Of a stretch of DNA of 64,000 bases, positions 28,221 through 52,295 are shown one piece after another. The position numbers and the translations under genes are program-made. The notes beneath the pieces were generated by a model. It did no database searches. It saw only the letters and a list, made by a program, of their open reading frames with translations, and had not been told where the DNA came from. Where the stretch lies: the NCBI RefSeq assembly GCF_056746865.1, contig NZ_CM163382.1; one strand, given 5' to 3'. Within the stretch, counting starts at the first letter, position 1; every line of letters starts with the position of its first letter.

Positions 28221-29141
28221 ATGACAAACTTCACGACCAGCACGCCGCATGATGCATTATTTAAAACCTTTCTCACGCACCCTGACACTGCGCGGGATTT
28301 TATGGAGATTCATTTACCTAAAGATTTACGTGAACTGTGCGATCTCGATAGCTTAAAACTGGAATCCGCCAGCTTTGTCGATGAAAAATTGCGGGCGCTA
28401 CACTCCGATATTTTATGGTCGGTAAAGACCCGCGAAGGCGATGGCTATATCTATGTGGTGATTGAACATCAGAGCCGCGAGGACATTCATATGGCCTTTC
28501 GCCTGATGCGCTATTCCATGGCGGTGATGCAGCGCCATATAGAGCATGATAAACGCCAGCCGCTACCGTTGGTCATCCCGATGCTATTTTATCACGGTAG
28601 CCGTAGTCCTTACCCCTGGTCCCTGTGCTGGCTGGACGAATTTGCCGACCCGACTACCGCACGGAAGCTTTATAACGCCGCGTTCCCGCTGGTGGATGTT
28701 ACTGTCGTGCCAGACGACGAGATTGTGCAGCATCGCAGAGTCGCCCTGTTGGAGTTGATCCAAAAGCATATTCGCCAGCGCGATCTGATGGGGCTTATCG
28801 ATCAACTGGTAGTATTACTGGTTACAGAGTGTGCTAATGACAGCCAGATAACTGCGCTGTTAAATTACATTTTACTGACTGGCGATGAAGCGCGTTTTAA
28901 TGAGTTTATCAGTGAACTTACCCGTCGAATGCCACAACACAGGGAGCGAATAATGACGATTGCAGAGCGAATTCATAATGATGGATATATAAAAGGGGAG
29001 CAGCGCATTCTTCGATTGTTGTTGCAGAATGGGGCGGATCCTGAATGGATACAAAAGATTACCGGACTTTCGGCAGAGCAAATGCAGGCATTAAGGCAGC
29101 CCTTGCCTGAGCGTGAGCGCTATTCATGGCTCAAGAGTTAA
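28221..29141 (+). CDS. rpnD: Rpn-family recombination-promoting nuclease (PD-(D/E)XK, transposase_31-like), full length
   Basis: 306 aa, N-terminus [38 protein letters not shown] typical of the Rpn/YhgA family; uninterrupted reading frame. Confidence 0.8.
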
Positions 29142-29159
29142 TCAGAGACGGATGACAAA

Positions 29160-29330
29160 CGCAAAGCAGCCTGATGCGCTATGCTTATCAGGTCTACATA
29201 ACCCATTAAATATATTGAACTTTAAAGATTTTTGTAGACCTGGTCAGGCGTTCACATGGCATCCGGCATGAACAAAGCGTACTTTGCTTAATTCAGGCTG
29301 GAACGTGGCGATGACCCAGCAAAGATAAAA
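29160..29330. repeat. REP/BIME cluster
   Basis: GATGCGCTATGCTTATCAGGTCTACA and TGTAGACCTGGTCAGGCGTTCACATGGCATCCGGCATG palindromic REP units between rpnD and yjiR. Confidence 0.6.
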
Positions 29331-29384
29331 CGAGTCACAGGTTATGCATGAGAGGAAATCAGGCGCTTCGCCGCTATTTCGAAT

Positions 29385-30797
29385 TTATTCCATTGCCCGA
29401 TACACGGCCTCGCCAATTTGCTTCAGTGCTTCGCGATAGGTTTCGCTGAGCGGCAAAGCGCAGTTGATGCGCAGACAATTACGGTATTTGCCGGAAGCTG
29501 AGAAAATCGAGCCTGCCGCCACCTGGATTTTCATGCGGCACAGCTGCCGCGCGACGCAGACCATATCGACCTGTTCAGGCAATTCTATCCACAGTAAAAA
29601 TCCGCCTTTCGGGCGCGTAATACAGATTTCGCAGGGAAAATATTCCCGTATCCAGCAGGTATAAAGCGCCAAATTGCGCTGATAGATCTGCCGCATCCGC
29701 CGGATATGGCGATGATAGTGACCTTCCAGCACAAACGTTGCCGCCGCCATTTGCGTGGACGGCACATTAAAGCTGCTGATGGCGTATTTCATATGCATCA
29801 GTTTATCGTGATAACGCCCCGGTGCGACCCAACCCACGCGCAGGCCTGGTGCAATACTTTTACTGAACGAGCTGCACAACAGCACTCGCCCGTCGATATC
29901 CCAGGAATGAATGGTCCGCGGGCGCGGATACTCCGTCGCCAGTTCGCCATAGACATCATCTTCAAAAATCACAATATCATGACGCTGAGCGAGAGAGAGA
30001 ACGGCCCGTTTGCGCGCGTCCGGCATAATAAATCCCAGCGGATTATTACAGTTTGGCACCAGAATGATGCCTTTAATCGGCCACTGTTCCAGCGCCAGTT
30101 CCAGCGCTTCAACGCTGATGCCAGTTTCTGGATCGGTTGGGATTTCAATCACTTTCACGCCCATGCCGCGCAGCATCTGCATCGAACCGTAATAACAGGG
30201 GGATTCGACCGCGACAATATCGCCCGGTTTACACACTGCCATTAACGCCAGCGACATCGAGTTATGGCAGCCGCTGGTGATGATGATGTCATCGGCGGTG
30301 ACCACCGAGCCGCTGTCGAGCATCAGGCGGGCAATCTGCTCTCGCAATACTCGCTGACCGGCTAACAAGTCATAACCGAGAACGGTTTGCAGATTATGCT
30401 GCACCACCCGGCTTAGCTCCCGCCACAGCGGTTTCAGGCTGGGCGCTTCGACATCCGGTGTGCTTTTGCTTAACGGAACAATGGAACTGTCGCTATGCGC
30501 CTCCAGCATATCCAGCACCTGATCCCACTGGGTAATTTCCACCGGGCGCTGCACCGGACGCGTCATCGGCGGTACTGGCGGCTGGGCTTTACGTTGTGCG
30601 ACAAAATAACCCGAACGCGGCTGCGGAGTGATGAGCTTCATCGTCTCCAGCGTCTGATACGCCTGCTGCACGGTGCTGATACTGACGCCGTGCTCCTGAC
30701 TTAAGCTGCGCACCGACGGCAATTTCTCCCCGTGACGATACAGCCCTTGCTCAATCCGTTCGGCAAGCAGAGTCGCCAGATGTTGATAACGCGTCAT
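29385..30797 (-). CDS. yjiR: MocR-family transcriptional regulator (GntR HTH fused to aminotransferase-like domain) YjiR
   Basis: 470 aa; N-terminal HTH (LPSVRSLSQEHGVSISTVQQAYQTLE) and a large PLP-fold domain. Confidence 0.82.
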   Translation of the reverse strand: MTRYQHLATLLAERIEQGLYRHGEKLPSVRSLSQEHGVSISTVQQAYQTLETMKLITPQPRSGYFVAQRKAQPPVPPMTRPVQRPVEITQWDQVLDMLEAHSDSSIVPLSKSTPDVEAPSLKPLWRELSRVVQHNLQTVLGYDLLAGQRVLREQIARLMLDSGSVVTADDIIITSGCHNSMSLALMAVCKPGDIVAVESPCYYGSMQMLRGMGVKVIEIPTDPETGISVEALELALEQWPIKGIILVPNCNNPLGFIMPDARKRAVLSLAQRHDIVIFEDDVYGELATEYPRPRTIHSWDIDGRVLLCSSFSKSIAPGLRVGWVAPGRYHDKLMHMKYAISSFNVPSTQMAAATFVLEGHYHRHIRRMRQIYQRNLALYTCWIREYFPCEICITRPKGGFLLWIELPEQVDMVCVARQLCRMKIQVAAGSIFSASGKYRNCLRINCALPLSETYREALKQIGEAVYRAME

Positions 30798-30973
30798 GCT
30801 GTATTCCTTATGTGGACCATACAGAGAGAAAAACCGGTACAGATGAGGCTAAAAAACCGGATGCAGATGCTGTTTTAACCTGTCTGTATGTTAAATAAAA
30901 GTAATATTTGAATCTGTATTGTGAACTGCCAGAAGGTGGATGATGAAGCCTCTGAAAGATGAGGAGGTAGCAG

Positions 30974-31138
30974 ATGGAATTTCACGAAAACAGAGCTAAA
31001 GCGCCGTTTATCGGCTTGGTGCAACTCTGGCAGGCGGTGAGGCGTTGGCGGCGGCAAATGCAGACCCGACGCGTGTTACAGCAGATGAGTGATGAGCGGT
31101 TGAAGGATATCGGGTTACGCAGGGAGGATGTGGAGTGA
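30974..31138 (+). CDS. yjiS: Small DUF1127-family protein YjiS (54 aa)
   Basis: ATG at 30974 preceded by GAGGAGG; translation MEFHENRAKAPFIGLVQLWQAVRRWRRQMQTRRVLQQMSDERLKDIGLRREDVE, an Arg-rich DUF1127-like peptide. It is below the ORF-track length cutoff. Confidence 0.7.
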   Translation: MEFHENRAKAPFIGLVQLWQAVRRWRRQMQTRRVLQQMSDERLKDIGLRREDVE

Positions 31139-31588
31139 GGGGGGATATAGATTTATATATAATAAAACGTTTTTATGTTTTTAAATTAAGTTATAAAAAT
31201 TTTCCCGAGACAATTCATCAATAGGTATGGAGTGTACAGGAATATCTTCTTCACTAACCTCTTTAAACTCATGTCGATAACGGTCAAAAAACGCACAGTG
31301 ATTACTTGTGTTTTTTGACTGACTTTACAACTCTCATTATTCGCTATTGTGCAGTTTCTCTAATTGTTTTATACCCTGGAAAGTTAAATGTCAGCTACTG
31401 AATACTTTTTGATTGTTTGAGATTTATTTTCATTTGAAATTATAAAATCAGGTGATAAATGAGTTGTGATTAATAGATGGTTGATATCATTTTTATCTAA
31501 AATTGATTTATAGTATCGACCTGAAAAAATAGTTGTTGCCGCCTGAGTAACTATACAATATTCTGAAAGGTTTTCTTTCAAATTAGAA

Positions 31589-34500
31589 ATGTTGTGGGGT
31601 TTTGTTTTTGTATCTTTTATCTCTAAGGAGCTTGCTTTGGGTCAATCAGAATACATTTCATGGGTAAAATGTACTTCCTGGCTAAGTAACTTTGTGAATC
31701 TTAGAGGGTTGAGACAACCGGATGGCCGTCCTCTTTATGAATATCATGCAACCAATGATGAATATACCCAATTAACGCAGCTACTCCGTGCAGTCGGTCA
31801 ATCACAATCTAATATATGTAATAGGGACTTTGCTGCCTGTTTTGTTCTTTTTTGCTCTGAGTGGTACCGCAGGGATTATGAACGGCAATGCGGATGGACG
31901 TGGGACCCTATATATAAAAAAATAGGGATTTCATTCACCGCCACAGAGCTTGGTACTATCGTACCGAAAGGGATGGAAGATTACTGGCTGCGCCCAATTC
32001 GATTTTATGAATCTGAACGACGCAATTTTCTCGGAACATTATTCAGTGAAGGTGGTTTACCTTTCCGGCTACTCAAAGAATCAGACAGTCGCTTTCTGGC
32101 TGTTTTCTCCAGGATCCTTGGACAATATGAGCAAGCAAAGCAGTCAGGTTTTTCTGCCCTTTCGCTGGCAAGAGCTGTCATAGAAAAATCAGCGCTGCCA
32201 ACTGTTTTTAGCGAAGATACCTCTGTAGAACTTATCAGTCATATGGCTGATAACCTCAATTCCTTAGTACTTACTCACAACCTAATAAATCACAAAGAAC
32301 CAGTACAACAGCTTGAGAAGGTTCACCCTACCTGGCGAAGCGAGTTTCCAATACCGTTAGATGATGAAACAGGAACGCATTTTTTGAATGGACTGCTATG
32401 CGCAGCCTCTGTAGAGGCTAAGCCTCGACTACAAAAAAATAAGAGTACGCGTTGCCAATTCTATTGGTCAGAAAAGCATCCAGATGAGCTTAGGGTGATA
32501 GTATCTCTTCCGGACGAAGTTTCCTTTCCTGTAACAAGCGAGCCGTCAACTACGCGCTTTGAACTTGCCATTTGTGAAGATGGTGAGGAAGTCTCTGGCC
32601 TTGGGCCAGCCTATGCTTCTCTGGAAAACAGACAGGCAACAGTTCGATTACGTAAAAGCGAAGTGAGATTTGGCAGGCAAAATCCATCGGCAGGTTTGTC
32701 GTTAGTGGCTCGTGCTGGAGGGATGATTGTTGGGAGCATTAAACTTGATGACAGTGAAATTGCCATTGGTGAGGTGCCGTTAACCTTCATCGTTGATGCA
32801 GATCAATGGCTGTTACAGGGACAGGCTTCTTGCAGTGTGCGAAGCAGCGATGTTCTGATTGTGCTCCCTCGGGATAATAGCAATGTTGCTGGTTTTGATG
32901 GCCAATCGAGGGCAGTAAACGTATTAGGACTAAAAGCACTACCTGTGAAGGGATGTCAGGACGTTACAGTTACAGCAAATGAAACTTATCGGATTCGCAC
33001 CGGAAGAGAACAAATCAGCATCGGAAGGTTTGCTCTAAATGGAAAGCGTGCAAGCTGGGTTTGTCATCCAGATGAAACATTTATTGGTGTACCAAAAGTC
33101 ATTTCTACACTACCGGATATTCAAAGCATTGATGTAACGCGTTACCTGAGCGGAATTTCAATTGAGCAATGTCATATACAAGAGATGCTGGGGGCTCAAT
33201 ATCTTTCTATCCGTAATAGTAAGAATGAAACGCTCTTGCGTCGCAAAATCGGTATTTTGCCTGCTGATTTCAGTATTGAGATAAAAGGTGGAATACACGC
33301 AAATGAAGGCACTATCGTAATCACCACACAGCATCCTTGTGTAGCAAAACTTAAAGATAAAACATTGGAGGCTACACGTAAGCGTACTGAGGGGCGAACA
33401 GAGATACAACTCAAAGCGGAAGGGGTACCTCCGGCATTTATTACATTACAAGTTCTGCCTAATTTGGCGGCTGACCCCATCGATATTGAGTTACCTTTTC
33501 CCGCTAAAGGCTGTCTCGCTCTTGATGTAAACGGACGTCCTCTGGATAAAAACATTACGCTGCATGATCTGCTGGGTTCCAGAGCGTTTCTGTTCTCCAG
33601 AAATGGCGAGCCGACAAGATATACATTGCAGTTGCATTTGCGCTCCGTTAGTGGATTACAGGCATGGCACGAATGGTGTTATACGGCGTTGAGCGATCGT
33701 CCTGTTGAATTGAATCTCTATAGTCTGCGCGAACATATTGAGAACCTGATTTCACTTGAGGCAGGTATTGACCAGGTTGTTGAGATGCGTATTACGGGGG
33801 CGGGTGTGGTCATGGCCTGGCAAATTCGTCGCTATAAATACAGTCTGCGCTATGATTATGAAAAAGAACTATTACTCAGCCAGTCAGTGAACCATCGTGC
33901 TGGACAGATTCCTTCCCCCGTTATCATGCTGTTAAGTGAACCCGAGAGGAAATCCATCCCCTTAGCATCAAGAATGAGCGAGGGAGTGCCTGTCGGTGAA
34001 TATGAGTTGAGCTCAATCGTTAACAAAAATGGACCGTGGTTGGTTGTCCCTAAACCGGGTGAAGAGATGGCTTTTCGTCCCTGCTTCATTCGTGGCGAAT
34101 CTTCGTTACCGGTAGAAGAAAGCAACATCCGCTCATTGCAGAAAGCGACCCAGCTTTTTAATCCACAGGCAGAAGTTAATACCATCACACTGGTTCTCGG
34201 ACAGATGGCTAACGATCCTGCCCATTCCGGCTGGCAATTTATGCGTAGCCTGTACGATCAATTTGGTTATTTACCACTGGCAACCTTTGAAGTATGGCGT
34301 GCACTGGTGCAGCATCCGCAGGCATTGGCAATGTCGCTCTTCAAATTTGAAATGTCAGCAGAGTACCTGAGTCGTATTGAGAATGAGTTCCCTATTCTAT
34401 GGGAGTTTTTCCCCATCTTTGAGATCAAAGCGGCATCTGAGCGTTTCAAATTGTTCCTGAGCCAAAAAGGTGCACCGGAGGAAACCCAGAAATTACTGGT

Positions 34501-34927
34501 TACTAATATGTTTCAACGGCTGGGGCTCGTGTTCCCGACATATGCCGATGAAATTGAGAAATGGTTAAGTAACGGACATCTCCCCCCGTCTATTCCTGAG
34601 TCTTTTGTCCACGTGTGGTATCAGGAGCTTTTACGTGAGCATAGTGAAGCTCAATGGCCAGAGTACGGCAGCAAGCGGCTGCATAGCTGGATGGCATCAC
34701 AAAAAAATCCAGTGATTGGTATTAATCCTGACGCAAATCACCGCTATTCCGTGGCCTTGTTACCCGTCTTCGCTGCAGCTGTGGCAAGCGGAAATGCTTC
34801 TTTTGAATCTGTATTTGACCGTAAACCCGGTGCCGTATTTTTCCTGAGGCAAGTCAGGGATTTCGATTCCCGCTGGTTTAAGGCCATCTTCCAGTGCAGC
34901 CTGTTGCGTTATGTTGCTAAAAAATAA
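31589..34927 (+). CDS. Large protein of unknown function (up to 1112 aa), first gene of a two-gene candidate defence operon; DruH-like by architecture
   Basis: Long uninterrupted ORF ending 12 bp before the helicase gene. No P-loop, nuclease or methylase motif recognised by eye. Coding sequence is visibly AT-richer than its neighbours. An alternative TTG start at 31637 has an AAGGAG RBS 6 nt upstream. From memory this corresponds to a full-length version of the yjiT fragment of K-12. Confidence 0.75.
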   Translation: MLWGFVFVSFISKELALGQSEYISWVKCTSWLSNFVNLRGLRQPDGRPLYEYHATNDEYTQLTQLLRAVGQSQSNICNRDFAACFVLFCSEWYRRDYERQCGWTWDPIYKKIGISFTATELGTIVPKGMEDYWLRPIRFYESERRNFLGTLFSEGGLPFRLLKESDSRFLAVFSRILGQYEQAKQSGFSALSLARAVIEKSALPTVFSEDTSVELISHMADNLNSLVLTHNLINHKEPVQQLEKVHPTWRSEFPIPLDDETGTHFLNGLLCAASVEAKPRLQKNKSTRCQFYWSEKHPDELRVIVSLPDEVSFPVTSEPSTTRFELAICEDGEEVSGLGPAYASLENRQATVRLRKSEVRFGRQNPSAGLSLVARAGGMIVGSIKLDDSEIAIGEVPLTFIVDADQWLLQGQASCSVRSSDVLIVLPRDNSNVAGFDGQSRAVNVLGLKALPVKGCQDVTVTANETYRIRTGREQISIGRFALNGKRASWVCHPDETFIGVPKVISTLPDIQSIDVTRYLSGISIEQCHIQEMLGAQYLSIRNSKNETLLRRKIGILPADFSIEIKGGIHANEGTIVITTQHPCVAKLKDKTLEATRKRTEGRTEIQLKAEGVPPAFITLQVLPNLAADPIDIELPFPAKGCLALDVNGRPLDKNITLHDLLGSRAFLFSRNGEPTRYTLQLHLRSVSGLQAWHEWCYTALSDRPVELNLYSLREHIENLISLEAGIDQVVEMRITGAGVVMAWQIRRYKYSLRYDYEKELLLSQSVNHRAGQIPSPVIMLLSEPERKSIPLASRMSEGVPVGEYELSSIVNKNGPWLVVPKPGEEMAFRPCFIRGESSLPVEESNIRSLQKATQLFNPQAEVNTITLVLGQMANDPAHSGWQFMRSLYDQFGYLPLATFEVWRALVQHPQALAMSLFKFEMSAEYLSRIENEFPILWEFFPIFEIKAASERFKLFLSQKGAPEETQKLLVTNMFQRLGLVFPTYADEIEKWLSNGHLPPSIPESFVHVWYQELLREHSEAQWPEYGSKRLHSWMASQKNPVIGINPDANHRYSVALLPVFAAAVASGNASFESVFDRKPGAVFFLRQVRDFDSRWFKAIFQCSLLRYVAKK

Positions 34928-34939
34928 AAAGGAATAAGG

Positions 34940-37900
34940 ATGACTACACGCTATTTTTCGTCACTTATTGAACAATCGTTGTCTCGTTCAACTGAAGCAA
35001 CGCTCAGTATCATGGGCGTTACCAACCCGCAGCTGCGTGAACATCTCGCGCAACAAATGGGGGCTGATTGTGGGAAACCGGGCTCATTCCTTGCTTCTCC
35101 GGTATTCCAGCAAATGTTTGGCTGGAAGGAGTCAAACCACACGATGCGCAGCCTGACGGAAGGCAACGCATTGTTGAGCAAAGCAGTGGTTGATTCACTG
35201 GATGATCAGAATAATGGCCGGTACCGGTTTGGTGCTGACTGGAGGCCTTTTACGCACCAGTTAGCCAGTTGGAAAGCTTTGCTGGAAAAGAAACATTCAG
35301 TGGTGGTAACCAGTGGTACGGGTTCAGGTAAAACGGAATGTTTTATGGTACCGGTGCTGGAAGATCTTTACCGGGAACTGCATGAAAATGGCAACAATCC
35401 GTTGGTCGGTGTCCGAGCCCTTTTTCTCTATCCATTGAACGCCCTGATTAATTCACAGCGCGAGCGTCTGGATGCCTGGACGCGTGGTTTTGGTACAGGG
35501 ATCCGCTACTGCCTTTACAACGGCAACACCGAAAACCTACACGCTTCGGTAAAAAGCGAACAGGCAAAAAGGCCGAATGAGGTGCTCTCGCGCGAAAAAA
35601 TGCGTGAAGAACCTGCGCCGATTCTGGTGACCAACGGCACGATGCTGGAATATATGATGGTTCGCCAGGTCGACGCCCCGATTATCCAGCAATCTAAAGC
35701 ACAAAAATCACTACGCTGGATTGTACTGGATGAAGCGCATACCTATGTAGGGTCGCAGGCCGCTGAACTGGCGCTCCAGCTGCGTCGTGTGATGACCGCG
35801 TTTGGCGTGACACCAGATGACGTGCGCTTTGTCGCGACCTCTGCGACCATTGCCGGCAGCGACGCTGAAAAGCAGCTGAAAAAATTTCTCTCTGAATTAT
35901 CCGGTATCCCGCAGGAGCGCATCGATGTTCTGGACGGAAGTCGGGTGATTCCTGAACTGGAACCATCCAAAAACGTTTCTGTTCCGTTAGACGAGATAGA
36001 GCAAATACCTGATCTGGATCTAAGAGATAAAAATGATAATAAAATTAAAGGGATAAGTCCTGAGCGCTTTTATGCGCTTACGCATTCCCCCGAAGCGCGT
36101 TACATACGTGAGATGTTGGTCAAACAGCCCAATCCGATGAAGCTGGATGAGATAACAGAGCGGTTACACGTGCTGACAAAACAGCATTACAGCCAGCAGG
36201 AAGTACTGCGTTGGATCGATGTCTGTTCAGGGACTCAACCTAATGCAAAGGATCCCGCATTTCTTAAAGTCAGGGCGCATATCTTCCAGCGTAATACCCA
36301 GGGAATATGGGCTTGTGTTGATAAAGATTGCAGATTAAAGCACGGTACACCGCTCGACAAAGGCTGGCCCTTTGGCTATGTGTATGTGAACCAGCGACAA
36401 AATTGTGACTGTGGAAGCCCTGTATACGAAGTTGCATTCTGTAATGATTGTAATGAGCCTCATCTTCTGGCACGGGACAAAAAGGGCAAACTAGTCCAGT
36501 GGGAAAATAAAGGTGGCGATGAATTCTCTTTGCAGGATGAAGTACCTGTTGAACATGACGCTACAGAAGAAAAAGTCGAAAAAGAGAACAGTTTTCAGCC
36601 TCCGTTGATTATTGCCGCAGGAGAGACCAGCGAGGCAGGTTATACCCTACAACGCCTCGACCGTCAGACGCGCCGTATTGGCGTTATTAACAATGACAGC
36701 ATTCCGCTGATTATTAATGATATTGAACAGGTTTGTAGTGCCAGTGGCTGTGGCTACAGAGGCATGAGTGGGAAACAGCCCTTCCGGCGTGCACTATTAG
36801 GTGGGCCATTTTACGTTACTAATATCGTGCCCACCGTTCTAGAGTATTGTCAGGACTTTACCAGTGATGAAGGCAAAGAGGGCGTCGGACCAGATTCGTT
36901 GCCAGGACGAGGTCGTCGACTCATCACCTTTACAGACAGTCGACAAGGGACAGCCCGAATGGCGGTGCGTATGCAGCAAGAAGCAGAACGCAGTCGCTTA
37001 CGCGGAAGCGTAGTCGAAATTCTCAGCTGGCATCAAAGGACGCAAACGTCTACAGCGCCGAATGCCAATGCCGATCTGGAAAAATTAGCGGCCAGGGCGA
37101 AGCAAGCCCGTGAGCAGGCAGAAGAATATCGAAGCTGGGGAATGCCAGACCAGGCGAAATTGTCACAAGCACAGGCTGAACAGCTTGAACAGGCTTATCA
37201 GGCTGCAACCGGTGGGAAAGCTGCGACTATCCTGGTATCCCGAACCTGGACGGAGATGGTTAACGAGCTTAAAGAGAGAGCCGATATCCGCGGGCCGGTT
37301 CTGCAATATAACCATTATCTTAAGCCTGAAGTGTTTAATGAAAACGGCGGCCCCCTTAAGCTTTCTGAAATGTTGTTGTTCCGGGAATTCATGCGTCGCC
37401 CTAAACGGACTAACAGCCTGGAAACACAGGGGCTGGTTCAGGTTGGTTACCAGGGGCTGGAGAAAATACATAAGAGCCCCTTGCACTGGCAGGAAAAAGG
37501 ATTAACGCTGGATGACTGGCGCGATTTTCTCAAGGTTACGTTGGATCATTACGTTCGCGAGAGCAACTTCACACAGCTGGATGATGAGCTGAAAAACTGG
37601 ATTGGTAGCCGTTTTTCATCAAAATTCGTCCGTAACCCGGAATCAAAAGATCCTGAAGATAATCAGAACAGACGCTGGCCTCAAATTCGTAATGGCAACG
37701 TATCCCATCGTTTAGCGAAGTTGCTGATGCTGGGGGCTGGATTCAAAACCGTCAATGCGGCAACTATTGATATTATCAATACATGGCTGAAAGAAGCATG
37801 GGCCCAACTTACCGGACCGCTTGCAGTACTGAAACCCGATGGCAACCGTTTTTATTTACCGAAAGAGCATATGACTTTTTCTTTAATCACGGATGCCTGG

Positions 37901-43766: not shown

Positions 43767-43927
43767 AAGATATGCCTTCCTCATTGCTAAGCCTCTATTA
43801 TCGCTTTCGCAACGTACTGAAACAATAGATTTTTACTGCAAAATCAGACTGGTAAATATTTACTGAGGGGGAAAGTTTCTATTGAGTCAGTGGAAGGCTC
43901 CCGGTGGTTAACCGGGAGTAAACGCTG

Positions 43928-44269
43928 TTACGCGACTTTCTGTTTACCGGCAATCACTCCAATAAACGCCTGCACCTGCTTTTGTTTACGCGCCGACAGT
44001 TTGCACACCTGGCGTAGCGACTGCATCAGTTCGCTCTCCTCGGCGGCGGGTGGTTGGGCGGTGAGGACAATACAGCCTTCCATCACTTTGACATCTACCG
44101 CCGTGCCAGTGGCAAAACCGGCGGCTTCCAGCCACTGACCTTTCAGGGTGATGGCGGGAATACGGCTGTAATCCGGGTAGCGACTCGCATAACCGACGGT
44201 GACATGACGGTTATTTGCCGGGGAGACTTCTGCTTCGAACGGTTGTGCAATAGAATGCGTGTCAGTCAT
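43928..44269 (-). CDS. symE: SOS-induced toxin-like protein SymE (type I toxin-antitoxin, AbrB-fold)
   Basis: 113 aa from [34 protein letters not shown]; located between mcrB and hsdS; the track ORF is extended upstream. Confidence 0.8.
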
Positions 44270-44338
44270 AACTGCTATTCTCCAGGAATAGTGATTGTGA
44301 TTAGCGATGCGGGTGTGTTGGCGCACATCCGCACCGCG
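44262..44338 (+). ncRNA. symR: Candidate antisense sRNA SymR (RyjC) overlapping the symE 5' end; coordinates approximate
   Basis: Established knowledge that a roughly 77-nt cis-antisense RNA overlaps the symE ribosome-binding site and start codon. The exact ends cannot be fixed from sequence; a 9-bp stem hairpin at 44309-44332 lies within the region. Confidence 0.25.
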
Positions 44339-44346
44339 CTAAATAC

Positions 44347-44362
44347 CTGTATATATCATCAG
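44347..44362. promoter_or_regulatory. Candidate LexA (SOS) box in the symE promoter
   Basis: CTGTATATATCATCAG matches the CTGT-N8-ACAG consensus with one mismatch, about 80 bp upstream of the symE start. Confidence 0.5.
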
Positions 44363-44496
44363 TAAATATGGGGAAAGTCCAGCTAAAAATAGAATAAAAT
44401 GGGCAATTTCTGGAATGATTTAAATATATTTATGTGGGTTATGATTGGCGTGAAATAATAAAAAGCGCACCGGAAAGGTGCGCCAGAAAATAATGT

Positions 44497-45891
44497 TCAG
44501 GATTTTTTACGTGAGGCTTTTTTACCCCCGCTAGCTGCGCGTTCAGCTTTGATTTTTTCCAGCAACGCGGCGGCGCTGTTTTCTCCGCTGATCAAATCCG
44601 GGTTTTCGGCCCGCCACTGGGCGGTAAGTTCACCACGGAACGCTTTTGCCAGGATGGATTGCGTCAGGTTGTTGACGCGGGCTAAGGCGTTGTTGACCTG
44701 TTTTTCTATGGTGTCGGCGTAGGCGAAGAGTTGCTCGACGCGGCGAACGATTTCGGCTTGTTCTTTTACTGGAGGTAATAAAACAACTTGGGATTTGATA
44801 TCTTTTCCTGAAATACCTTTTTGACCAGAAGTTGTTTTCACGCAGTTCATCATTGCATTTCGTGCTGAGGGGGATGAAAAAAATATTTCGATATATTCTG
44901 GTAAAGCATCTTTGGTTAATCGAGCTCGAATAAGTTTATCAGGATATAGCAAATTTTGATGTTGTAATTTTTTCAATAACCCACAAACACCAACAAATTC
45001 TAAACTTCCGTTATAGCGAGTAAATAAAAGATCTCCATCTTGTAATTTGTGGCGGTTTAGTTCACTTTCTGAACATTCTAGAAACCGAATATCGTTTTGA
45101 TCTACATGGCCAGCACGTACAGAACTAATGCGTAGTATTGGATGACCAACACCACTTTCATTTGGCTTTGATGAAAGACCATTACGTAATTCAGTTAAGA
45201 TAGATTCAAAATTTAACTTCTTAAATACAGAATGTTGCGGCTCAAAATTACGCCATTTTTCTGTCAATTTTCCATTAACTGCGCCCCCCAATACCGCTTG
45301 ACGAAAACGTTTCAGGATTTGTGGGATTTGCTCAAAACGTGCTTTGGTGCTGTCTACCTGCGCCAGCAGCGTATCGAGTTTTTCAGCGATGATTTTTTGT
45401 TCGGCAAGTGGTGGGATTGGTATATTTATCAAATCAAAGCTTGCCGGCTTAATATTATTAATATTTGCACCAGCAGAAAGTGATGAAATTTTGTTTCGAT
45501 AAAGAGAAGATTTTGTGAAATGAGCAATAAAACCAGAAAATATAAGTTTTTCAGGACGTAATACACCGCAAAATGCGCCGAAACTACATTCAAATGGTAG
45601 ATGCTGATGTGCGGATTTACCAACTACGGATTTGCTCCCTGATGACATTGCAATAACAATATCTTCAGGAGATATTTTTTGATTTTCTTTAACAAGATTT
45701 TTAGGAACAAAAACCAAGTCCGTAGTATCAAACTTGCCATTCTGAATATTGTTCGCACGGATAAGAGGCAAATAATCATCTTTTAGATAATTTATTGCCT
45801 GCTCTTTTTTATACGTTACTCCTCGGATTAGAGTTGTGACCGTAGATACTGGGGCGATAACCCACCCCTCCGGCAATTTCCCCGCACTCAT
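44497..45891 (-). CDS. hsdS: Type I restriction-modification specificity subunit HsdS
   Basis: 464 aa with two target-recognition domains separated and followed by conserved helical repeats; start ATG overlaps the hsdM stop (ATGA). The N-terminus MSAGKLPEGWVIAPVSTV is consistent with the EcoKI-family HsdS as I recall it. Confidence 0.88.
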   Translation of the reverse strand: MSAGKLPEGWVIAPVSTVTTLIRGVTYKKEQAINYLKDDYLPLIRANNIQNGKFDTTDLVFVPKNLVKENQKISPEDIVIAMSSGSKSVVGKSAHQHLPFECSFGAFCGVLRPEKLIFSGFIAHFTKSSLYRNKISSLSAGANINNIKPASFDLINIPIPPLAEQKIIAEKLDTLLAQVDSTKARFEQIPQILKRFRQAVLGGAVNGKLTEKWRNFEPQHSVFKKLNFESILTELRNGLSSKPNESGVGHPILRISSVRAGHVDQNDIRFLECSESELNRHKLQDGDLLFTRYNGSLEFVGVCGLLKKLQHQNLLYPDKLIRARLTKDALPEYIEIFFSSPSARNAMMNCVKTTSGQKGISGKDIKSQVVLLPPVKEQAEIVRRVEQLFAYADTIEKQVNNALARVNNLTQSILAKAFRGELTAQWRAENPDLISGENSAAALLEKIKAERAASGGKKASRKKS

Positions 45892-47477
45892 TCCTTCACC
45901 CCACCAAACGCTTCTTCCAGCAACTGACGCTGCAAATCGGCCTCATCGCTCGCCCCCAGTTCACGCATCAGCGCATCCAGTTCAGACAGCGCCTGTACCA
46001 GTTCGCCCATCGCTTCTGCCGCTAATACATCCGGCTCCGGCAGGCTGTCGGCATCAATACTGTCTTTATCTTTCAGCCAGGAGATATCCAGCGAATCGGA
46101 TTTTGCGGTGCGGATCCACTCACGGCTGAACTTGCGCCAGCGGCTGGTAGCAAGATGCTGGTCGGTGTTTTTGTTCTCTTCGCTGTCGGCAACTTCCGTC
46201 TCTTCGGCGTTAAAACTCCATTCACCTTCAGTGCGCGGGCTTAAACCGTGCGGGTCTTCGCCATACACGCGCTCAAACGGCTGCAAATGCTCGTCGGTAA
46301 ACGGTGTGCGCTTGCCGAAACTCGGCATATTGGTACGCAGGTCATACACCCACACGTCGTCGGTGCAGTTCTTATCCTGATGCGGGTTCGCCACTGTGCC
46401 TTTGGTAAAGAACAGCACGTTGGTCTTCACGCCCTGCGCGTAAAAAATACCGGTCGGCAGACGCAGAATGGTGTGCAGATGACACTTATCCATCAGGTCA
46501 CGACGGATGTCGGTGCCTTTGCCGCCTTCAAACAACACGTTATCTGGCACCACCACCGCCGCACGACCGCCGGGATGCAGCGTTTCGATAATATGCTGCA
46601 TAAAGCACAGCTGTTTGTTGCTGGTCGGGTGAACAAAGGTGCGGGTAATGTTGGTGCCTGCGGCGCTGCCAAACGGCGGGTTAGTGGCGACAATATGCGC
46701 CTTCGGCAGGTTTTCACCGTCGCTGCCCAGGGTGTTGCCCAGACGGATTGCGCCGCCGTGGTCGAGGTTGCCTTCAATATCGTGCAGCAGGCAGTTCATC
46801 AGTGCCAGACGACGGGTGCCGGGCACCAGTTCGAGGCCGATAAACGCGCGGTGGATCTGGAAATCCTGCGTGTCGCCATCAAGGTCGTCCAGATCATTGG
46901 TTTGCGACTTAACATAGCGGTCGGCTTCAATCAAAAAGCCCGCCGTACCTGCCGCCGGGTCCTGCACCACTTCACGCGGCTGCGGTTTCAGCAGATGAAT
47001 AATGGTTTTAATCAGCGGACGCGGGGTGAAGTACTGGCCTGCACCAGACTTGGTTTCATTCGCGTTCTTCTGCAACAGCCCTTCGTACATATCGCCGAAG
47101 TCATCGCGCGACTTACCGTGCGCGCCGTTGTACCAGTCCAGCGAATCCATATTGCTGACCAGTGCGGTTATTTGTTTCGGCTCGGTGATGGTGGTACTAA
47201 CATTATGAAAAACTGCCTGTACCAGCTTTTTGTCATCTTCGCCTAAATGCACGAGCATTTTTCGGTAGAACTGCAACTGCTCCTGGCCGATGCGGGATTT
47301 CAGGTCATCCCAGCGGTAACCTTCCGGCAGGTATTCCGCTTCCTGACCGGTCTCTTTACACATTTTCAAAAACAGCAGCGAGGCGAGTTCATTGACGTAG
47401 TTTTGATAGGAAACGCCGCCATCGCGCAGGTTGTCGCACAGCTTCCACAGCTTCGCGACCAGATCGTTATTGTTCAT
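45888..47477 (-). CDS. hsdM: Type I restriction-modification N6-adenine DNA methyltransferase HsdM
   Basis: 529-aa protein with N-terminal HsdM domain and methyltransferase motif (ATNPPFGSAAG, the NPPF catalytic motif). Confidence 0.92.
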   Translation of the reverse strand: MNNNDLVAKLWKLCDNLRDGGVSYQNYVNELASLLFLKMCKETGQEAEYLPEGYRWDDLKSRIGQEQLQFYRKMLVHLGEDDKKLVQAVFHNVSTTITEPKQITALVSNMDSLDWYNGAHGKSRDDFGDMYEGLLQKNANETKSGAGQYFTPRPLIKTIIHLLKPQPREVVQDPAAGTAGFLIEADRYVKSQTNDLDDLDGDTQDFQIHRAFIGLELVPGTRRLALMNCLLHDIEGNLDHGGAIRLGNTLGSDGENLPKAHIVATNPPFGSAAGTNITRTFVHPTSNKQLCFMQHIIETLHPGGRAAVVVPDNVLFEGGKGTDIRRDLMDKCHLHTILRLPTGIFYAQGVKTNVLFFTKGTVANPHQDKNCTDDVWVYDLRTNMPSFGKRTPFTDEHLQPFERVYGEDPHGLSPRTEGEWSFNAEETEVADSEENKNTDQHLATSRWRKFSREWIRTAKSDSLDISWLKDKDSIDADSLPEPDVLAAEAMGELVQALSELDALMRELGASDEADLQRQLLEEAFGGVKE

Positions 47478-47677
47478 TGTGAGTTCCGTAAATTAAGCAG
47501 CGGCCCAAATTCATCGAGCCGCAGAAGAAGAAATTGCCGAGGGTAATATACACAAAATCATTCAGGTTGCATCAAGGCGGCAAGTGAGTGAATCCCCGGG
47601 AGCGTACAGAAGTACGTGACCGGGGTGAACGAGCGCAGCCAACGCAGAGGCAGCCTGAAGGATGAAGTGTATACGTG

Positions 47678-50600
47678 TCAGGCCAGCTCGTCCCAGATAT
47701 AATCGCTGAATTTGCCCAGCAGGGTATCGAGATTATCGTCAAAGGTTCTTTGCAGCATCGCCTTCCCGCCGCGACGGTGGAAGTTGCCGGTTTTGAAGAC
47801 ATCGTCGTCGAGCACCACTTTCTCTTTCAGCGCCTGCGCTAAACGATCGAGCCAGCTTAATTGCTCGCTGCTCCAGTCGTTTTCGCCCTTAATGCGCGTC
47901 AGCGCGTGATCGACACGTTCCTCAAACGGTTTCAGCGCATCGCCCACCGCAGCGCGGCGAATATGACCAATCAGCCGGGCGGCGATATCTTCATTGCGCG
48001 TCTCTTTCCATGCTTTGCGCAGGGAAGATTCCTCAAAGTGCTGGCGGTCAAACCACTCCTGTAGCTCGACCAGCCCTTTACGGGTGAGATCGCGCGGGCG
48101 ATTAATAACTGCCTGCAATGCCGGTTGCGCGTTCGGGGAACGTTGCACCAGCGAGTCAAAGGCTTCGAGGAAATCCTGCGGCGTGTCGTAATCACCGTAC
48201 AGCGATTTTACACTCACCACTTCATCGTCGATATCGAGGAAGATCGGCGCATCATTCAGGTTGTTGATGTCCGTTTTCAGCTTTTCCAGACGGGCGATAA
48301 AGCCAGGCAGTTTGTTAAAGACTTCGGCGCTCCAGTGCGGCCCTTTTTCCCGCAGGCGCGAGGCGAAGCCGTTAAAGCCCACCCCCGCCGCGTCCTGGCA
48401 TAGCTCATCCAGACGACGCACCTGTTTATCTATCGTTTCGCTGCGGTCACGGTTAAACGTGGCCAGGCCGATGATGCGCTGGAGCTTCGCCACCAGTTGT
48501 TCATGGCTGTGCTCGGCAAAACTGCGGCCATCCGCTTCGGTGATTTTATAGGTTTCTGAATCGGTAATTTCGTTGACCAGCGTTTGCAGCTCCACCTTAG
48601 GACGCACCACCACCGGACGCATGGTGTCGACGCTCTCCAGCGTGCTGTATATATCGACGCAGTCGAAAATCTTAAAGCTGGTTTTATTCACGTCCGGGCA
48701 CAAGCGCGTGGCGCGGCCTTTCATCTGCTCGTACAGAATACGGCTGCGTACTTTACGCAGGAACACGATGTTACAGATCGACGGAATATCGACGCCGGTC
48801 GTCAGCAGGTCGACGGTTACCACAATATTGGGCAGCCGCTCTTTATTGAAGCGGGTGATCATGGTCTGCACTTTGCGCGCGTCTTTATCGGCATCACCGG
48901 TGATCTTGATTATCGCGTCGTGCTCCAGTTGCGGATACTTTTTCTTGAACGCGGTACGCAACTCTTCCACCACCATATCGGCATGGGCATTGGTGACGCA
49001 GAAGACCAGCGTTTTTTGCGACCCGGTCGGGTCAAGGTAGTTGGTGAGTTCGTTACAGACGGCGCGGTTAAACGCCGGGATCACCAGGCCACGGTTAAAG
49101 TCGGCGACCTCAAAATCCTGATCGTCTTCCAGGGTGTCGTTGATTACTTCCCCCTGCGGGCTGATGCGCTCTACCTGTTCGCCTTTGGAGAGATAAACAC
49201 CCTCCTGTGCGTTGCGGGTGGTGATCTGAATTGGTGGATCCTGGTCGATCAGAAAACCGTCGATAACCGCGGTACGGTAGGTATAACGGTAAACCGGCTC
49301 GCCGAAAATCTGCACCGTATGCAACGCCGGGGTGGCGGTGAGGGCGATTTTTATCGCATCGAAGTGATCGAGAATGCGACGGTAGGCAGAGACATAATCC
49401 AGCTGGCTGCGGAACTGTAGTTCGCCTTCGGTCTGCTCTTTATCGAGAATATAGCCGCGATGCGCTTCATCGACGACGATACAGTCGTAACGGGCCACCG
49501 GCATCGGTTCATCTGATTGCAGGGTGCGTTTCACCAGCGACTGTACGGTGGCAACGTGAATTTTGGTGCTGTCTTCCGGGAATTTATCCGTCAGCCCTTT
49601 AATGTCGAAAATGCTGTTGAAGGTGTCGCCGTTAATACGCGTATCTTCAAACGCCCCCAGCGCCTGCTCGCCAAGAGAACGGCGATCCACAAGGAAGAGA
49701 ATGCGTTTAAAACGCTGGGACTGGATCAGGCGGAACATCATGGCAATTGCGGTGCGGGTTTTACCGGTACCGGTCGCCATCGCCAGCAGGATCTCTTGTT
49801 GACCCTTGACGATTGCCTTTTCCACCGCGCGGACGGCATCTTCCTGATAATAACGCAGGCCCAGCTCGCTCATGCCGGGATTATCGGCAAACCACTGATT
49901 CTGTTTTTGCGGTTCGCTGCCGAGCATTTCCAGCAGCTCTTCCGGGCGATGCCACTCGGGTAAGGCTTTCGACATATTGCGGGTATCACGCACGTCGCGA
50001 TACCAGATGCCACTTTTAGTCTTCATTGCTGCGCGGTATTCGCGCCCGTTGGTGGAGTAGCAGAAGGGGATTTTAAACCGTTGTTGGCCGCTGGAGTCCT
50101 GCCAGCTAGTTTCATACTCCGGCACCGCTTCATGCACTTCATCCGGTGAGTAGTGCTCAAGCAAGGTTTCCCGCAGGAAGCCATTATCGAAGCATTTACT
50201 GTAGCGATACGACTCATTGAGCTTGCCGGGAACGTCGATATTTTTACGTTTCGCCTCTACCACCGCGATGGGTTTGAGGCCGACAAACAGCACATAATCC
50301 GCAAAGCCCTGTTTACCCGTTTCATCTTTCCCGGTCGGCCATTCGGCAATGGCTTTATTGACGCCGGGTTCCGGGCGCGCGCCTTTGGAGAAGCGCAGGG
50401 TTTTGCTATCGGCCTGCCAGCCTGCTTTACGCAGTTGCGCATCAATCAGGAAGCGGCTCTCTTCTTCGCTAAGGTTGAGTGTGCGCTTGATGGCCTGATC
50501 GGTAATTTCTTTGTGGTAAGCCTTACGTTCCTGTTCAGTCTGTTTGGCCAGTTCCGCGTTCTTCTCGGCGAGCTGTGCTTCCAGCGCCGCAAGGCGAGCC

Positions 50601-51190
50601 TGGGTTTGCGCTTCTGTTTCCTGCTGTTTGCCTTCCAGAATAGCGATATAGCCGTTCAGGGCAACCAGCTTCTGCTGTTGCGCTTCGACTTCTGCCTGAG
50701 TCTGCGCTTTTTCTCGCACCTGCTGTTCAAGCTGTTGTTTTAGCGTCAGCACTTCCTGGTGATAGAGGTTCTCGCCACGTTCTGGTAACACAAACACCGG
50801 CACCGGGAAGTCATAATCTTTAGTGACCAGACGGTAGTACCAGACAGCCAGGCGGAACCCGAGTCGCAGGCACATCTGGGCATCGTCGAGATCGTTGTGA
50901 TATTCGTGCACCGCCTGGTTACCAATGCGGCGTAATTTGTGAAATACAGAGAGAATGTTGTCATCAACGAAGGCGATTTTGCCGAGTTCGCGCAGGAGAT
51001 CGTGTTGATTCTCACAAGGGGGGATGTTGAGTAACAGACCAAGATGTTTCGCTGTGGCTTCGCCAAACATACGCATTTTAATTAGCGTCGTGTTGGGATC
51101 ATCCGGGTAGTTATTTTCCGCCGCACAGGCGATGGCATAAGTGAAGTCGTTGACGCCCTTCAGGAATTCGAAGTTGGATTTATTCATCAT
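47678..51190 (-). CDS. hsdR: Type I restriction enzyme endonuclease/translocase subunit HsdR
   Basis: 1170 aa; SF2 helicase motifs (AMATGTGKT Walker A, DEAH-type VVDEAHRG) and an N-terminal nuclease region. Confidence 0.92.
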   Translation of the reverse strand: MMNKSNFEFLKGVNDFTYAIACAAENNYPDDPNTTLIKMRMFGEATAKHLGLLLNIPPCENQHDLLRELGKIAFVDDNILSVFHKLRRIGNQAVHEYHNDLDDAQMCLRLGFRLAVWYYRLVTKDYDFPVPVFVLPERGENLYHQEVLTLKQQLEQQVREKAQTQAEVEAQQQKLVALNGYIAILEGKQQETEAQTQARLAALEAQLAEKNAELAKQTEQERKAYHKEITDQAIKRTLNLSEEESRFLIDAQLRKAGWQADSKTLRFSKGARPEPGVNKAIAEWPTGKDETGKQGFADYVLFVGLKPIAVVEAKRKNIDVPGKLNESYRYSKCFDNGFLRETLLEHYSPDEVHEAVPEYETSWQDSSGQQRFKIPFCYSTNGREYRAAMKTKSGIWYRDVRDTRNMSKALPEWHRPEELLEMLGSEPQKQNQWFADNPGMSELGLRYYQEDAVRAVEKAIVKGQQEILLAMATGTGKTRTAIAMMFRLIQSQRFKRILFLVDRRSLGEQALGAFEDTRINGDTFNSIFDIKGLTDKFPEDSTKIHVATVQSLVKRTLQSDEPMPVARYDCIVVDEAHRGYILDKEQTEGELQFRSQLDYVSAYRRILDHFDAIKIALTATPALHTVQIFGEPVYRYTYRTAVIDGFLIDQDPPIQITTRNAQEGVYLSKGEQVERISPQGEVINDTLEDDQDFEVADFNRGLVIPAFNRAVCNELTNYLDPTGSQKTLVFCVTNAHADMVVEELRTAFKKKYPQLEHDAIIKITGDADKDARKVQTMITRFNKERLPNIVVTVDLLTTGVDIPSICNIVFLRKVRSRILYEQMKGRATRLCPDVNKTSFKIFDCVDIYSTLESVDTMRPVVVRPKVELQTLVNEITDSETYKITEADGRSFAEHSHEQLVAKLQRIIGLATFNRDRSETIDKQVRRLDELCQDAAGVGFNGFASRLREKGPHWSAEVFNKLPGFIARLEKLKTDINNLNDAPIFLDIDDEVVSVKSLYGDYDTPQDFLEAFDSLVQRSPNAQPALQAVINRPRDLTRKGLVELQEWFDRQHFEESSLRKAWKETRNEDIAARLIGHIRRAAVGDALKPFEERVDHALTRIKGENDWSSEQLSWLDRLAQALKEKVVLDDDVFKTGNFHRRGGKAMLQRTFDDNLDTLLGKFSDYIWDELA

Positions 51191-51377
51191 TGTTATTAAT
51201 CCATTGCTGTGTGGGCCTGTCCAAATATTTAAGGCCCATAACGTCTTATCTTAGCTTTCTGTACCTTTCCGGACAATGACCGGAGTCACAGCAACTGACT
51301 CATTTCTAACGTGTTCGTCTATTTTGGTAGTGTTATAGTAGCCGAAAAACATCTACCTGATTCTGCAAGGATGTACT

Positions 51378-52292
51378 ATGACGGTTCCTACCTATGACAA
51401 ATTTATTGAACCTGTTCTGCGTTATCTGGCGACAAAACCGGAAGGTGCAGCCGCGCGTGATGTTCATGAGGCTGCCGCGGATGCATTAGGACTGGATGAC
51501 AGCCAGCGAGCGAAAGTCATTACCAGCGGACAACTTGTTTATAAAAATCGTGCAGGCTGGGCACATGACCGTTTAAAACGTGCCGGGTTGTCGCAAAGTT
51601 TGTCGCGTGGCAAATGGTGCCTGACTCCTGCGGGTTTTGACTGGGTTGCGTCTCATCCCCAGCCAATGACGGAGCAGGAGACGAACCATCTGGCCTTCGA
51701 TTTTGTGAATGTCAAACTTAAGTCACGGCCGGATGCCGTCGATTTAGATCCGAAAGCCGACTCTCCCGATCATGAAGAACTAGCAAAGAGCAGCCCGGAC
51801 GATCGGTTAGATCAGGCGCTAAAAGAGCTTCGTGATGCGGTGGCTGATGAGGTTCTGGAAAACTTATTGCAGGTTTCTCCTTCGCGCTTTGAAGTCATTG
51901 TTCTGGATGTTTTGCATCGCCTGGGGTATGGCGGCCACCGTGATGATTTGCAGCGTGTTGGCGGTACTGGAGATGGTGGCATCGATGGTGTGATATCGCT
52001 TGATAAACTTGGCCTGGAGAAAGTTTATGTTCAGGCAAAACGTTGGCAGAACACTGTAGGCAGGCCAGAATTACAGGCATTTTACGGCGCACTGGCTGGG
52101 CAAAAGGCGAAACGTGGGGTGTTTATTACCACTTCTGGATTTACGTCTCAGGCGCGTGACTTTGCTCAATCCGTCGAGGGTATGGTGTTGGTTGATGGGG
52201 AACGCCTGGTGCACTTAATGATCGAAAACGAAGTAGGGGTTTCTTCACGTTTGTTGAAGGTGCCGAAACTGGATATGGACTATTTTGAGTGA
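51378..52292 (+). CDS. mrr: Modification-dependent (type IV) restriction endonuclease Mrr
   Basis: 304 aa; N-terminal winged-helix and C-terminal Mrr-cat PD-(D/E)XK region (...VYVQAKRW...); divergent from hsdR. Confidence 0.88.
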   Translation: MTVPTYDKFIEPVLRYLATKPEGAAARDVHEAAADALGLDDSQRAKVITSGQLVYKNRAGWAHDRLKRAGLSQSLSRGKWCLTPAGFDWVASHPQPMTEQETNHLAFDFVNVKLKSRPDAVDLDPKADSPDHEELAKSSPDDRLDQALKELRDAVADEVLENLLQVSPSRFEVIVLDVLHRLGYGGHRDDLQRVGGTGDGGIDGVISLDKLGLEKVYVQAKRWQNTVGRPELQAFYGALAGQKAKRGVFITTSGFTSQARDFAQSVEGMVLVDGERLVHLMIENEVGVSSRLLKVPKLDMDYFE

Positions 52293-52295
52293 AAT

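Follow-up and report, generated by a model that had tools for sequence, protein, structure and literature searches.

An apparently undecayed K-12-type immigration control region of Escherichia coli, with a predicted Druantia type III system next to McrBC

The stretch of DNA analysed in this study, hereafter the window, comprises 64,000 nucleotides of contig NZ_CM163382.1 (RefSeq assembly GCF_056746865.1) and contains, at positions 28221-52292, a 24-kb block of contiguous nucleic-acid-targeting systems. This segment belongs to an Escherichia coli chromosome and is 100 % identical to many RefSeq strains. Gene identities were established from the RefSeq annotation of one of these strains, from the list of open reading frames (ORFs) and from a comparison with E. 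coli K-12. The genes follow each other in the order mdtM, rpnD, yjiR, yjiS, yjiT/druH, druE, mcrC, mcrB, symE, hsdS, hsdM, hsdR, mrr and yjiA, i.e. the order observed in K-12. An earlier note, drawn up from the sequence alone, had described this block as a composite defence island in the immigration-control arrangement of E. coli. Its account of the gene content was borne out: all the genes that it named are present where it had placed them, the systems that it had numbered at least five proved to be six modules side by side, and the two gene overlaps that it had reported are real, i.e. the single base (42387) shared by the mcrB stop codon TAG and the mcrC start codon GTG in TAGTG, and the ATGA formed at 45888-45891 by the hsdM stop codon TGA and the hsdS start codon ATG. 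The clustering of defence genes goes beyond chance, with full-length PADLOC matches at E=0 or nearly so for DruH, DruE, HsdR, HsdM, HsdS and Mrr. PADLOC returned no match for RpnD, McrC, SymE or YjiS; this is a gap in that library and not counter-evidence on their identity, because these assignments rest on identity with K-12 and on RefSeq names. Altogether, 28221-52292 is very probably the immigration control region (ICR) of E. coli, i.e. defence hotspot #36, which is bounded by yjiN and yjiA (PMC12707154), with cassettes of the K-12 type that are here undecayed. The description as a composite ICR-type island is right, but it was already known.

The large two-gene helicase system of this block, which the earlier note had presented as extra with respect to the usual arrangement, is assigned from profile and motif matches to Druantia type III, YjiT being predicted as DruH and the 2114-aa helicase as DruE. 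The gene druH (31637-34927, + strand), i.e. full-length yjiT, codes for a Druantia type III partner protein of 1096 aa. It is followed after 12 nt, in the same orientation, by druE (34940-41284, + strand), the intact form of the K-12 pseudogene yjiV, whose 2114-aa product is a YprA/MrfA-like SF2 helicase and the presumed effector. Residues 1-1096 of DruH were aligned with positions 1-1099 of the 1100 positions of the PADLOC profile DruH3 (PDLC00049; E=0, 1828 bits), and residues 1-2110 of the 2114 residues of DruE matched the profile DruE3 (PDLC00037; E=0, 2701 bits). DruE also aligned over its full length with the solved DruE structure (PDB 9tu7, 1029 bits). Its helicase motifs are intact, i.e. 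GSGKT (motif I) at residue 128, DEAH (motif II) at 264 and RAGRAGR (motif VI) at 1146, and the zinc-binding cysteines are present (CRHC..CSEC at 1700-1710). DruE displays in this way the hallmark of its Druantia III namesakes, a YprA/MrfA-like SF2 helicase of about 2,000 aa carrying a zinc-binding MZB/DUF1998 module. A search for the PLD pattern HxK(4)D in DruE gave no match, and no conclusion on PLD-like domains was drawn. Among the ORFs and in the RefSeq annotation, none of the type I/II Druantia genes (druA-D, druM, druF, druG) was found, nor any other gene between yjiS and mcrC. Published work places DruH in the YjiT family and locates the gene for the E. coli member of that family in the ICR (PMC13192584).

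The two genes are preceded by an AT-rich leader of 498 bp (31139-31636), in an area where the GC content is 0.39 (31001-32000), and an AAGGAG Shine-Dalgarno sequence lies 6 nt before the TTG start codon of druH at 31637. The small ORFs embedded in the region, which the earlier note had put forward as possible accessory components, did not withstand inspection in this gap between yjiS and druH: the 498 bp hold only short, low-complexity ORFs, none of them convincing, and these were rejected as genes. Between the convergent genes druE and mcrC stands a terminator-like hairpin with a 13-bp stem (41291-41319, + strand). Scanning 30700-44600 for sigma-70 promoters was uninformative, with 12 sites compared with 21.5 in shuffled controls and none in the druH leader. 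A Druantia locus of the ICR type was also observed in Escherichia whittamii (locus L010, 3-9176), where it adjoins yjiS with the same leader of about 490 bp; DruH is full length (95 % amino-acid identity) and DruE (97 %) is present for at least its first ~1,950 residues, the locus ending within druE. The ICR Druantia cassette is therefore not confined to E. coli.

Alignment with K-12 confirmed both features by which, according to the earlier note, this region stands apart, i.e. the extra two-gene system and the uninterrupted rpnD. The gene order is identical from mdtM to yjiA, with a nucleotide identity of 99.9 % in the left part and 98.7 % in the right part. In K-12, rpnD is interrupted by a single C>T change at window position 28530 (Q104*), and the Druantia genes have suffered two deletions: one of 3017 bp (window 33146-36162), which removes DruH from residue 504 to its end together with residues 1-408 of DruE, and one of 2182 bp (window 38313-40494), which removes DruE residues 1125-1852. 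As judged from this alignment, the yjiT fragment and the yjiV pseudogene of K-12 are the remnants of this same Druantia III. At the amino-acid level McrB, McrC, SymE, YjiR and YjiS are 100 % identical to their K-12 counterparts, HsdS, HsdM and Mrr differ by one residue each, and HsdR by 13. The stretch at 98.7 % identity runs from 40495 to 55723; together with the 13 changes in HsdR (47678-51190), it hints at a recombination boundary inside the island. In E. coli B (B-LamR, NZ_CP115179.1, locus L066, 7466-12354), the lesion is unlike the two deletions of K-12: an IS1A element lies between a truncated rpnD and a 5'-truncated druE, and the associated deletion extends from the interior of rpnD through yjiR, yjiS, druH and about 1,000 druE codons, leaving mcrBC, symE and hsdSMR in place. 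The druE remnant is annotated there as 'DUF1998 domain-containing protein'. In other strains (NZ_CP145703.1, NZ_CP032515.1), druHE is broken by two copies of IS5 or by an element of the IS3 family, and the resulting fragments bear the annotation 'STY4851/ECs_5259 family protein'. A by-product of this survey is that yjiT/yjiV of K-12 and the fragment of E. coli B can be seen as differently deleted remnants of one mcrBC-linked Druantia III cassette.

To delimit the variable part of the region, the window was aligned with the corresponding loci of O157:H7, an echidna isolate (strain A1), ST131 and MBT-5. Across this four-strain alignment, the conserved left flank stops at 31138-31143, i.e. at the yjiS stop codon, and the right flank is conserved from 52337/52338 onwards, i.e. 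from the 3' end of yjiA; the sole conserved segment in between is an islet of about 43932-44390 holding symE/symR. The hypervariable defence segment is 31139-52337, and rpnD, yjiR and yjiS belong to the conserved left flank and not to the cargo. The view of 28221-52292 as one defence block stands in so far as the systems are adjacent, and fails in so far as the variable segment does not include these three flanking genes. Two slots were recognised. In slot 1 (31144-43931), Druantia type III (druH-druE) and McrBC are joined into one cassette, and slot 2 (44391-52337) holds a type IA restriction-modification (R-M) system of the EcoKI family together with Mrr. O157:H7 and MBT-5 have DUF262/GmrSD genes in slot 1 and a type IB hsd system in slot 2; in ST131, slot 1 is empty and slot 2 is occupied by another type I system, a restriction endonuclease and BrnTA; in the echidna isolate A1, a penicillin G acylase gene alone lies between yjiS and yjiA, with no defence gene. 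Such cassette-like variation has been described for ICR hotspot #36 (PMC12707154). In this arrangement, rpnD/yjiR/yjiS, symE/symR and yjiA would serve as homology anchors, and the cassettes between them would be exchanged by recombination.

The distribution of each module was assessed in 5,426 complete E. coli genomes, a match being counted when at least 80 % of the query was covered. Conserved anchors were the most frequent, with rpnD in 4230/5426 genomes (78 %), yjiR-yjiS in 3532/5426 (65 %) and symE/symR in 2859/5426 (53 %). Lower counts were obtained for mrr (943/5426, 17 %), hsdRM (927/5426, 17 %) and mcrBC (581/5426, 11 %), these three being inflated by the over-representation of K-12 and B laboratory derivatives among complete genomes. 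Full-length druHE was found in 231/5426 genomes (4 %) and the whole block in 226/5426 (4 %). With this allele as query, megablast detected druHE in 672 genomes when any match was counted, all at 95 % identity or more, and the full-length copies of the 231 genomes share 97-100 % nucleotide identity. The junction between the 3' ends of druE and mcrC is contiguous in 587 genomes, compared with 581 that have mcrBC; this mcrBC therefore hardly ever occurs without an adjoining druE, whole or as a remnant, and druHE and mcrBC form one linked cassette. It is conceivable, if rather doubtful, that Druantia III and McrBC in slot 1 are a co-selected unit and not independent neighbours. If that were true, the two could cooperate, cytosine-modified DNA being dealt with by McrBC and other DNA intermediates by this Druantia lineage, and the ICR-type DruH, which is unlike studied DruH outside its N-terminal domain, could sense a different trigger.

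The flanking pair yjiR-yjiS deserved particular attention. The gene yjiR (29385-30797, - strand) codes for a MocR/GabR-type regulator composed of a winged helix-turn-helix and an aminotransferase-like pyridoxal phosphate (PLP) domain, and yjiS (30974-31138, + strand) for a 54-aa DUF1127 protein. NCBIfam gave full-length matches of YjiR to MocR-like transcription factors, the best of them (PdxR, 267 bits) being below cut-off, as were the scores for every named subfamily; in the PDB, YjiR matched GabR over residues 10-432. Weak PADLOC hits of YjiR to SspA and DndA (E ~1e-5) were discarded as defence evidence, as they reflect the shared PLP fold. Between the two genes lies a divergent promoter region (30798-30973) with five ATACAG/CTGTAT/CTGTAC hexamers, a putative YjiR operator array. 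Among 27 aligned sequences representing over 12 genera, the hexamers never change, unlike the spacers, and nowhere else in the 64-kb window do at least three such hexamers fall within 150 bp; a scan of the window with this inferred motif found no ATACAG array upstream of druH, mcrB, hsdM, hsdR or mrr. Operators of MocR regulators are reported to contain, typically, a conserved TGT group (PMC5320631). We infer that YjiR, acting through the ATACAG array, probably regulates the promoter region between the two divergent genes and hence yjiS, and that it would not control the cassettes. In the literature on MocR regulons and yjiR, we found no prior description of YjiR targets; a candidate operator for this uncharacterised regulator is a by-product of the present analysis. 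In E. coli, YjiS has been reported to bind PhoR, a sensor kinase that it would thereby modulate, and to influence phosphate uptake (PMC12501420); in Salmonella, it is a small membrane-associated protein affecting macrophage escape (PMC11707872). If YjiR does control yjiS via the array, it is conceivable, if rather doubtful, that an amino-compound signal is linked in this way to PhoR signalling.

The surroundings of yjiRS were then compared between species. One genome per species was scanned for YjiR orthologues, yielding 58 loci of Enterobacteriaceae (45-99 % identity) from Escherichia, Citrobacter, Klebsiella, Kluyvera, Leclercia, Lelliottia, Silvania, Mangrovibacter, Shimwellia and other genera, in nearly all of which yjiS is the divergent neighbour of yjiR at about 177 bp. 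Defence genes (type I R-M, GmrSD, Mrr-like, ZacABC, McrB-like) occur within 10 kb of yjiRS in 21/58 loci, 11 others have only rpnD or symE within that distance, and no defence gene was detected within 10 kb in the remaining 26, an upper bound since selected clusters of neighbouring ORFs were run through PADLOC. None of 30 neighbouring genes from Leclercia, Mangrovibacter and Shimwellia matched a PADLOC system. Frequent neighbours of yjiRS were a MarR/SlyA-like regulator, an EmrA/MdtN-like adaptor, a LysE-type exporter, a cystathionine beta-lyase, transporters and an aldehyde dehydrogenase. The 3' end of yjiR is the site of defence cassettes in Klebsiella and Enterobacter, which fits an anchor role and not a functional link: with the E. 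coli cassettes beyond yjiS, both outward-facing ends of the pair carry cassettes and are insertion sites, as expected of an anchor. Enterobacter sp. kpr-6 (locus L041, 11590-17742) has a complete ZacABC system at the yjiR 3' end, where E. coli has rpnD (PADLOC: ZacA 1.4e-133, ZacB 8e-174, ZacC E=0). In seven loci from Lelliottia, Leclercia, Huaxiibacter and Silvania (L044-L049 and L057, ~7700-9250), a second MocR-like paralogue of ~463 aa, with 24-26 % identity to YjiR, flanks yjiS on the side opposite to yjiR, together with a 171-aa gene and with no ICR anchors nearby. Two loci labelled 'Collinsella sp.' (a metagenome-assembled genome, L009) and 'Chryseobacterium sp.' (L040) have a yjiR of 99 % and 76 % identity, respectively, in surroundings resembling those in Enterobacteriaceae, and are probably cases of contamination or mislabelling.

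These observations allow the possible roles of the block and of its parts to be weighed. The earlier note had proposed that yjiR and/or yjiS might be accessory or regulatory components of the neighbouring defence systems, to be recognised by a defence association of their homologues in other genomes. Both genes do adjoin defence cassettes directly in E. coli, the 21 species loci with defence genes within 10 kb include ZacABC and type I R-M at the yjiR 3' end (Enterobacter, Klebsiella), and YjiR is a transcription factor according to its domain matches. What lies beside yjiRS nevertheless varies between strains (Druantia III with McrBC, GmrSD, nothing, penicillin acylase, ZacABC or type I R-M), therefore no specific partner can be named, and the comparison revealed no consistent co-occurrence with a particular system. 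The 26 loci in which no defence gene was detected, the confinement of the operator-like array to the yjiR-yjiS intergenic region and the phenotypes of YjiS, linked to PhoR in E. coli and to the membrane and virulence in Salmonella (PMC12501420, PMC11707872), all point away from such a role. In E. coli B, both genes are lost and yet hsdSMR and mcrBC are retained. This strain is a classical EcoBI-restricting one. An accessory function of yjiR or yjiS in defence is accordingly exceedingly improbable, and we regard them as conserved flanking anchor genes that are not supported as part of any neighbouring defence system. An origin of the 24-kb block as a single mobile genomic island, gained and moved as one unit, would agree with the presence of at least 80 % of the whole block in 226 genomes, at up to 100 % identity, i.e. 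in 226 of the 231 genomes with full-length druHE. Whole-block matches are chromosomal except for six plasmid places. On the other side, no integrase, tRNA gene or mobility gene is annotated by RefSeq in or beside the block, rpnD, yjiR and yjiS show a core-like divergence (95-96 % identity between strains), and the slots vary independently between breakpoints located at conserved chromosomal anchors. The GC content forms a mosaic as well, at ~0.40-0.42 for mcrBC and hsdS and 0.53-0.57 for hsdM and hsdR, and module frequencies are ~20-fold apart. On the basis of composition, module frequencies and breakpoints at anchors, this highly improbable origin was rejected in favour of an ICR made of exchangeable cassettes.

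There is also the question of whether the intact-looking druHE is silent or decaying, as in K-12 and B, so that the active content of the region would effectively equal that of K-12. The lesions found elsewhere, i.e. the two deletions in K-12, the IS1-associated deletion in E. coli B and the IS5 or IS3 elements in other strains, would be in keeping with this, as would the 498-bp AT-rich leader that separates druH from yjiS, in which the scan detected no sigma-70-like promoter. We nevertheless consider it unlikely, given that both ORFs are full length with end-to-end profile matches, that the helicase motifs and zinc-binding cysteines of DruE are intact, and that full-length druHE is kept at 97-100 % nucleotide identity in 231 genomes, with DruH complete and at least the first ~1,950 residues of DruE present in E. 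whittamii. Several points do weigh against our own reading of the region, in which an undecayed ICR includes a functional Druantia III and yjiRS is an anchor. With phmmer, DruH resembled the solved DruH (9tud) only in its N-terminal part (residues 14-258). It would therefore represent a divergent lineage of the family, and because the resemblance is limited to the N-terminal ~250 residues, the behaviour of the ICR DruH may differ from that of studied Druantia systems. The activity of this Druantia III allele is predicted from intact ORFs and motifs alone, and the binding of YjiR to the ATACAG repeats is likewise presumed from their conservation. Among module frequencies, the inflated counts of mcrBC, hsd and mrr have to be kept in mind. 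Lastly, a positional association of yjiRS with defence exists (21/58 loci), which we read as an anchor effect, and it was measured on clustered neighbouring ORFs of which only chosen clusters were submitted to PADLOC, singletons and small proteins being mostly left out.

The remaining modules correspond to well-described systems. The genes mcrC (41341-42387, - strand) and mcrB (42387-43766, - strand) overlap and encode a type IV modification-dependent restriction system equal to EcoKMcrBC, in which McrB combines a DNA-binding domain with an AAA+ GTPase and McrC is the nuclease. They are followed by the toxin gene symE (43928-44269, - strand) of a type I toxin-antitoxin pair and by symR (44264-44340, + strand), an antisense RNA recognised by Rfam (RF01809, 95.3 bits) that overlaps the symE start codon (44269), as a cis-antisense regulator should. 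A LexA-box-like site with one mismatch, CTGTATATATCATCAG, lies at 44347-44362 upstream of symE. With 18 matches to the LexA-box pattern where 17 are expected, the window as a whole shows no enrichment; the site is meaningful solely through its position. The type I R-M genes hsdS (44497-45891, - strand), hsdM (45888-47477, - strand) and hsdR (47678-51190, - strand) gave full-length PADLOC matches to Specificity_I, MTase_I and REase_I, respectively; the three subunits are intact and differ from EcoKI by 13 (HsdR), one (HsdM) and one (HsdS) residues, as befits a type IA system of the EcoKI family. A terminator-like hairpin is found 3' of hsdS. Finally, mrr (51378-52292, + strand) encodes a type IV restriction endonuclease (PADLOC mREase_IV, 2.7e-174) with a winged-helix N-terminal domain and an Mrr-cat nuclease domain, 303 of its 304 residues being those of EcoKMrr.

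At the left border, rpnD (28221-29141, + strand) is intact and encodes 306 aa annotated by RefSeq as 'Rpn family recombination-promoting nuclease' (RpnL); PADLOC 2.0 has no Rpn model. In Rpn nucleases, RpnL and RpnS form a toxin-antitoxin pair: the antitoxin, which contains variable 4-aa repeats, is the C-terminal part of the protein, translated on its own (PMC10400941). Here, the start of the presumed RpnS within the gene would be M245, at about nt 28953. RpnD proteins of other strains are longer by 8 or 12 aa, inserted 12 residues past M245, and the place of this insertion fits the 4-aa-repeat polymorphism of RpnS (PMC10400941). According to a review, the toxin-antitoxin systems of the ICR are rpn, symE/symR and brnTA (PMC12707154).

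Judging from published studies of the respective families, each defence module would act independently of the others. EcoKI-type HsdRMS would methylate host DNA and cut unmodified DNA, and McrBC and Mrr would cut DNA with foreign methylation. SymE would be an SOS-induced toxin repressed by the antisense RNA SymR, and RpnD a toxic DNA endonuclease restrained by its own C-terminal fragment, translated from an internal start. The mechanism of Druantia III has been described (PMC13192584; 10.64898/2026.05.13.724758), and phage protection requiring both druH and druE was shown for other alleles (10.64898/2026.05.13.724758; PMC13192584). By analogy, DruE would be a 3'-5' helicase, also a nuclease according to one study, engaging phage intermediates that contain single-stranded DNA, and DruH would serve as its partner or sensor. 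In the literature searched, no experimental test of the ICR Druantia III allele was found.

Some features of the window lie outside the block. The GC minimum of the window (0.347) is located at 15001-16000, in the yjiC-ytiD-idlP/iraD intergenic region. Beyond the right flank, similarity with K-12 stops at 55723, save for a short stretch at 93 % identity (55851-56014), and the hpa (4-hydroxyphenylacetate) catabolic cluster follows btsT at 55724-64000, the place directly after btsT being held by tsr in K-12.

The lead given by the earlier note is thereby mainly closed: this is a textbook E. coli defence island, and its extra system is the already catalogued Druantia III. A useful by-product is a clean map of the cassette slots with exact breakpoints.

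Compared with known systems, the region is closest to the ICR of K-12, in which rpnD carries Q104* and druHE is broken whereas both are whole here. The Q104* codon leaves only the short form of RpnD possible in K-12, and the rpnD of the window is uninterrupted. McrB and McrC are identical in amino acids to those of EcoKMcrBC, and HsdS has N70 where K-12 EcoKI has S70. As in the Rpn family described elsewhere (PMC10400941, PMC5350276), an Rpn annotation, an internal Met and a length polymorphism are observed, and judging by the genes alone rpnD would be a putative RpnL/RpnS pair. YjiR resembles GabR/PdxR-like MocR regulators in having a divergent partner and short direct and inverted repeats containing TGT; its partner is a 54-aa DUF1127 protein, whereas that of GabR/PdxR-type regulators is a metabolic enzyme. 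The word Druantia occurs 0 times in the text of the ICR review (PMC12707154). The Druantia III systems of ECOR19, ATCC8739 and EDL933 are, as here, two-gene druH-druE operons whose DruE of ~2,100 aa has the same helicase motifs and zinc-binding cysteines, and the N-terminal domain of DruH is common to the ICR allele and to studied Druantia III. The studied Druantia III is found in a satellite-like element beside Zorya II and ARMADA II (10.64898/2026.05.13.724758), whereas the one predicted here lies in the ICR beside McrBC.

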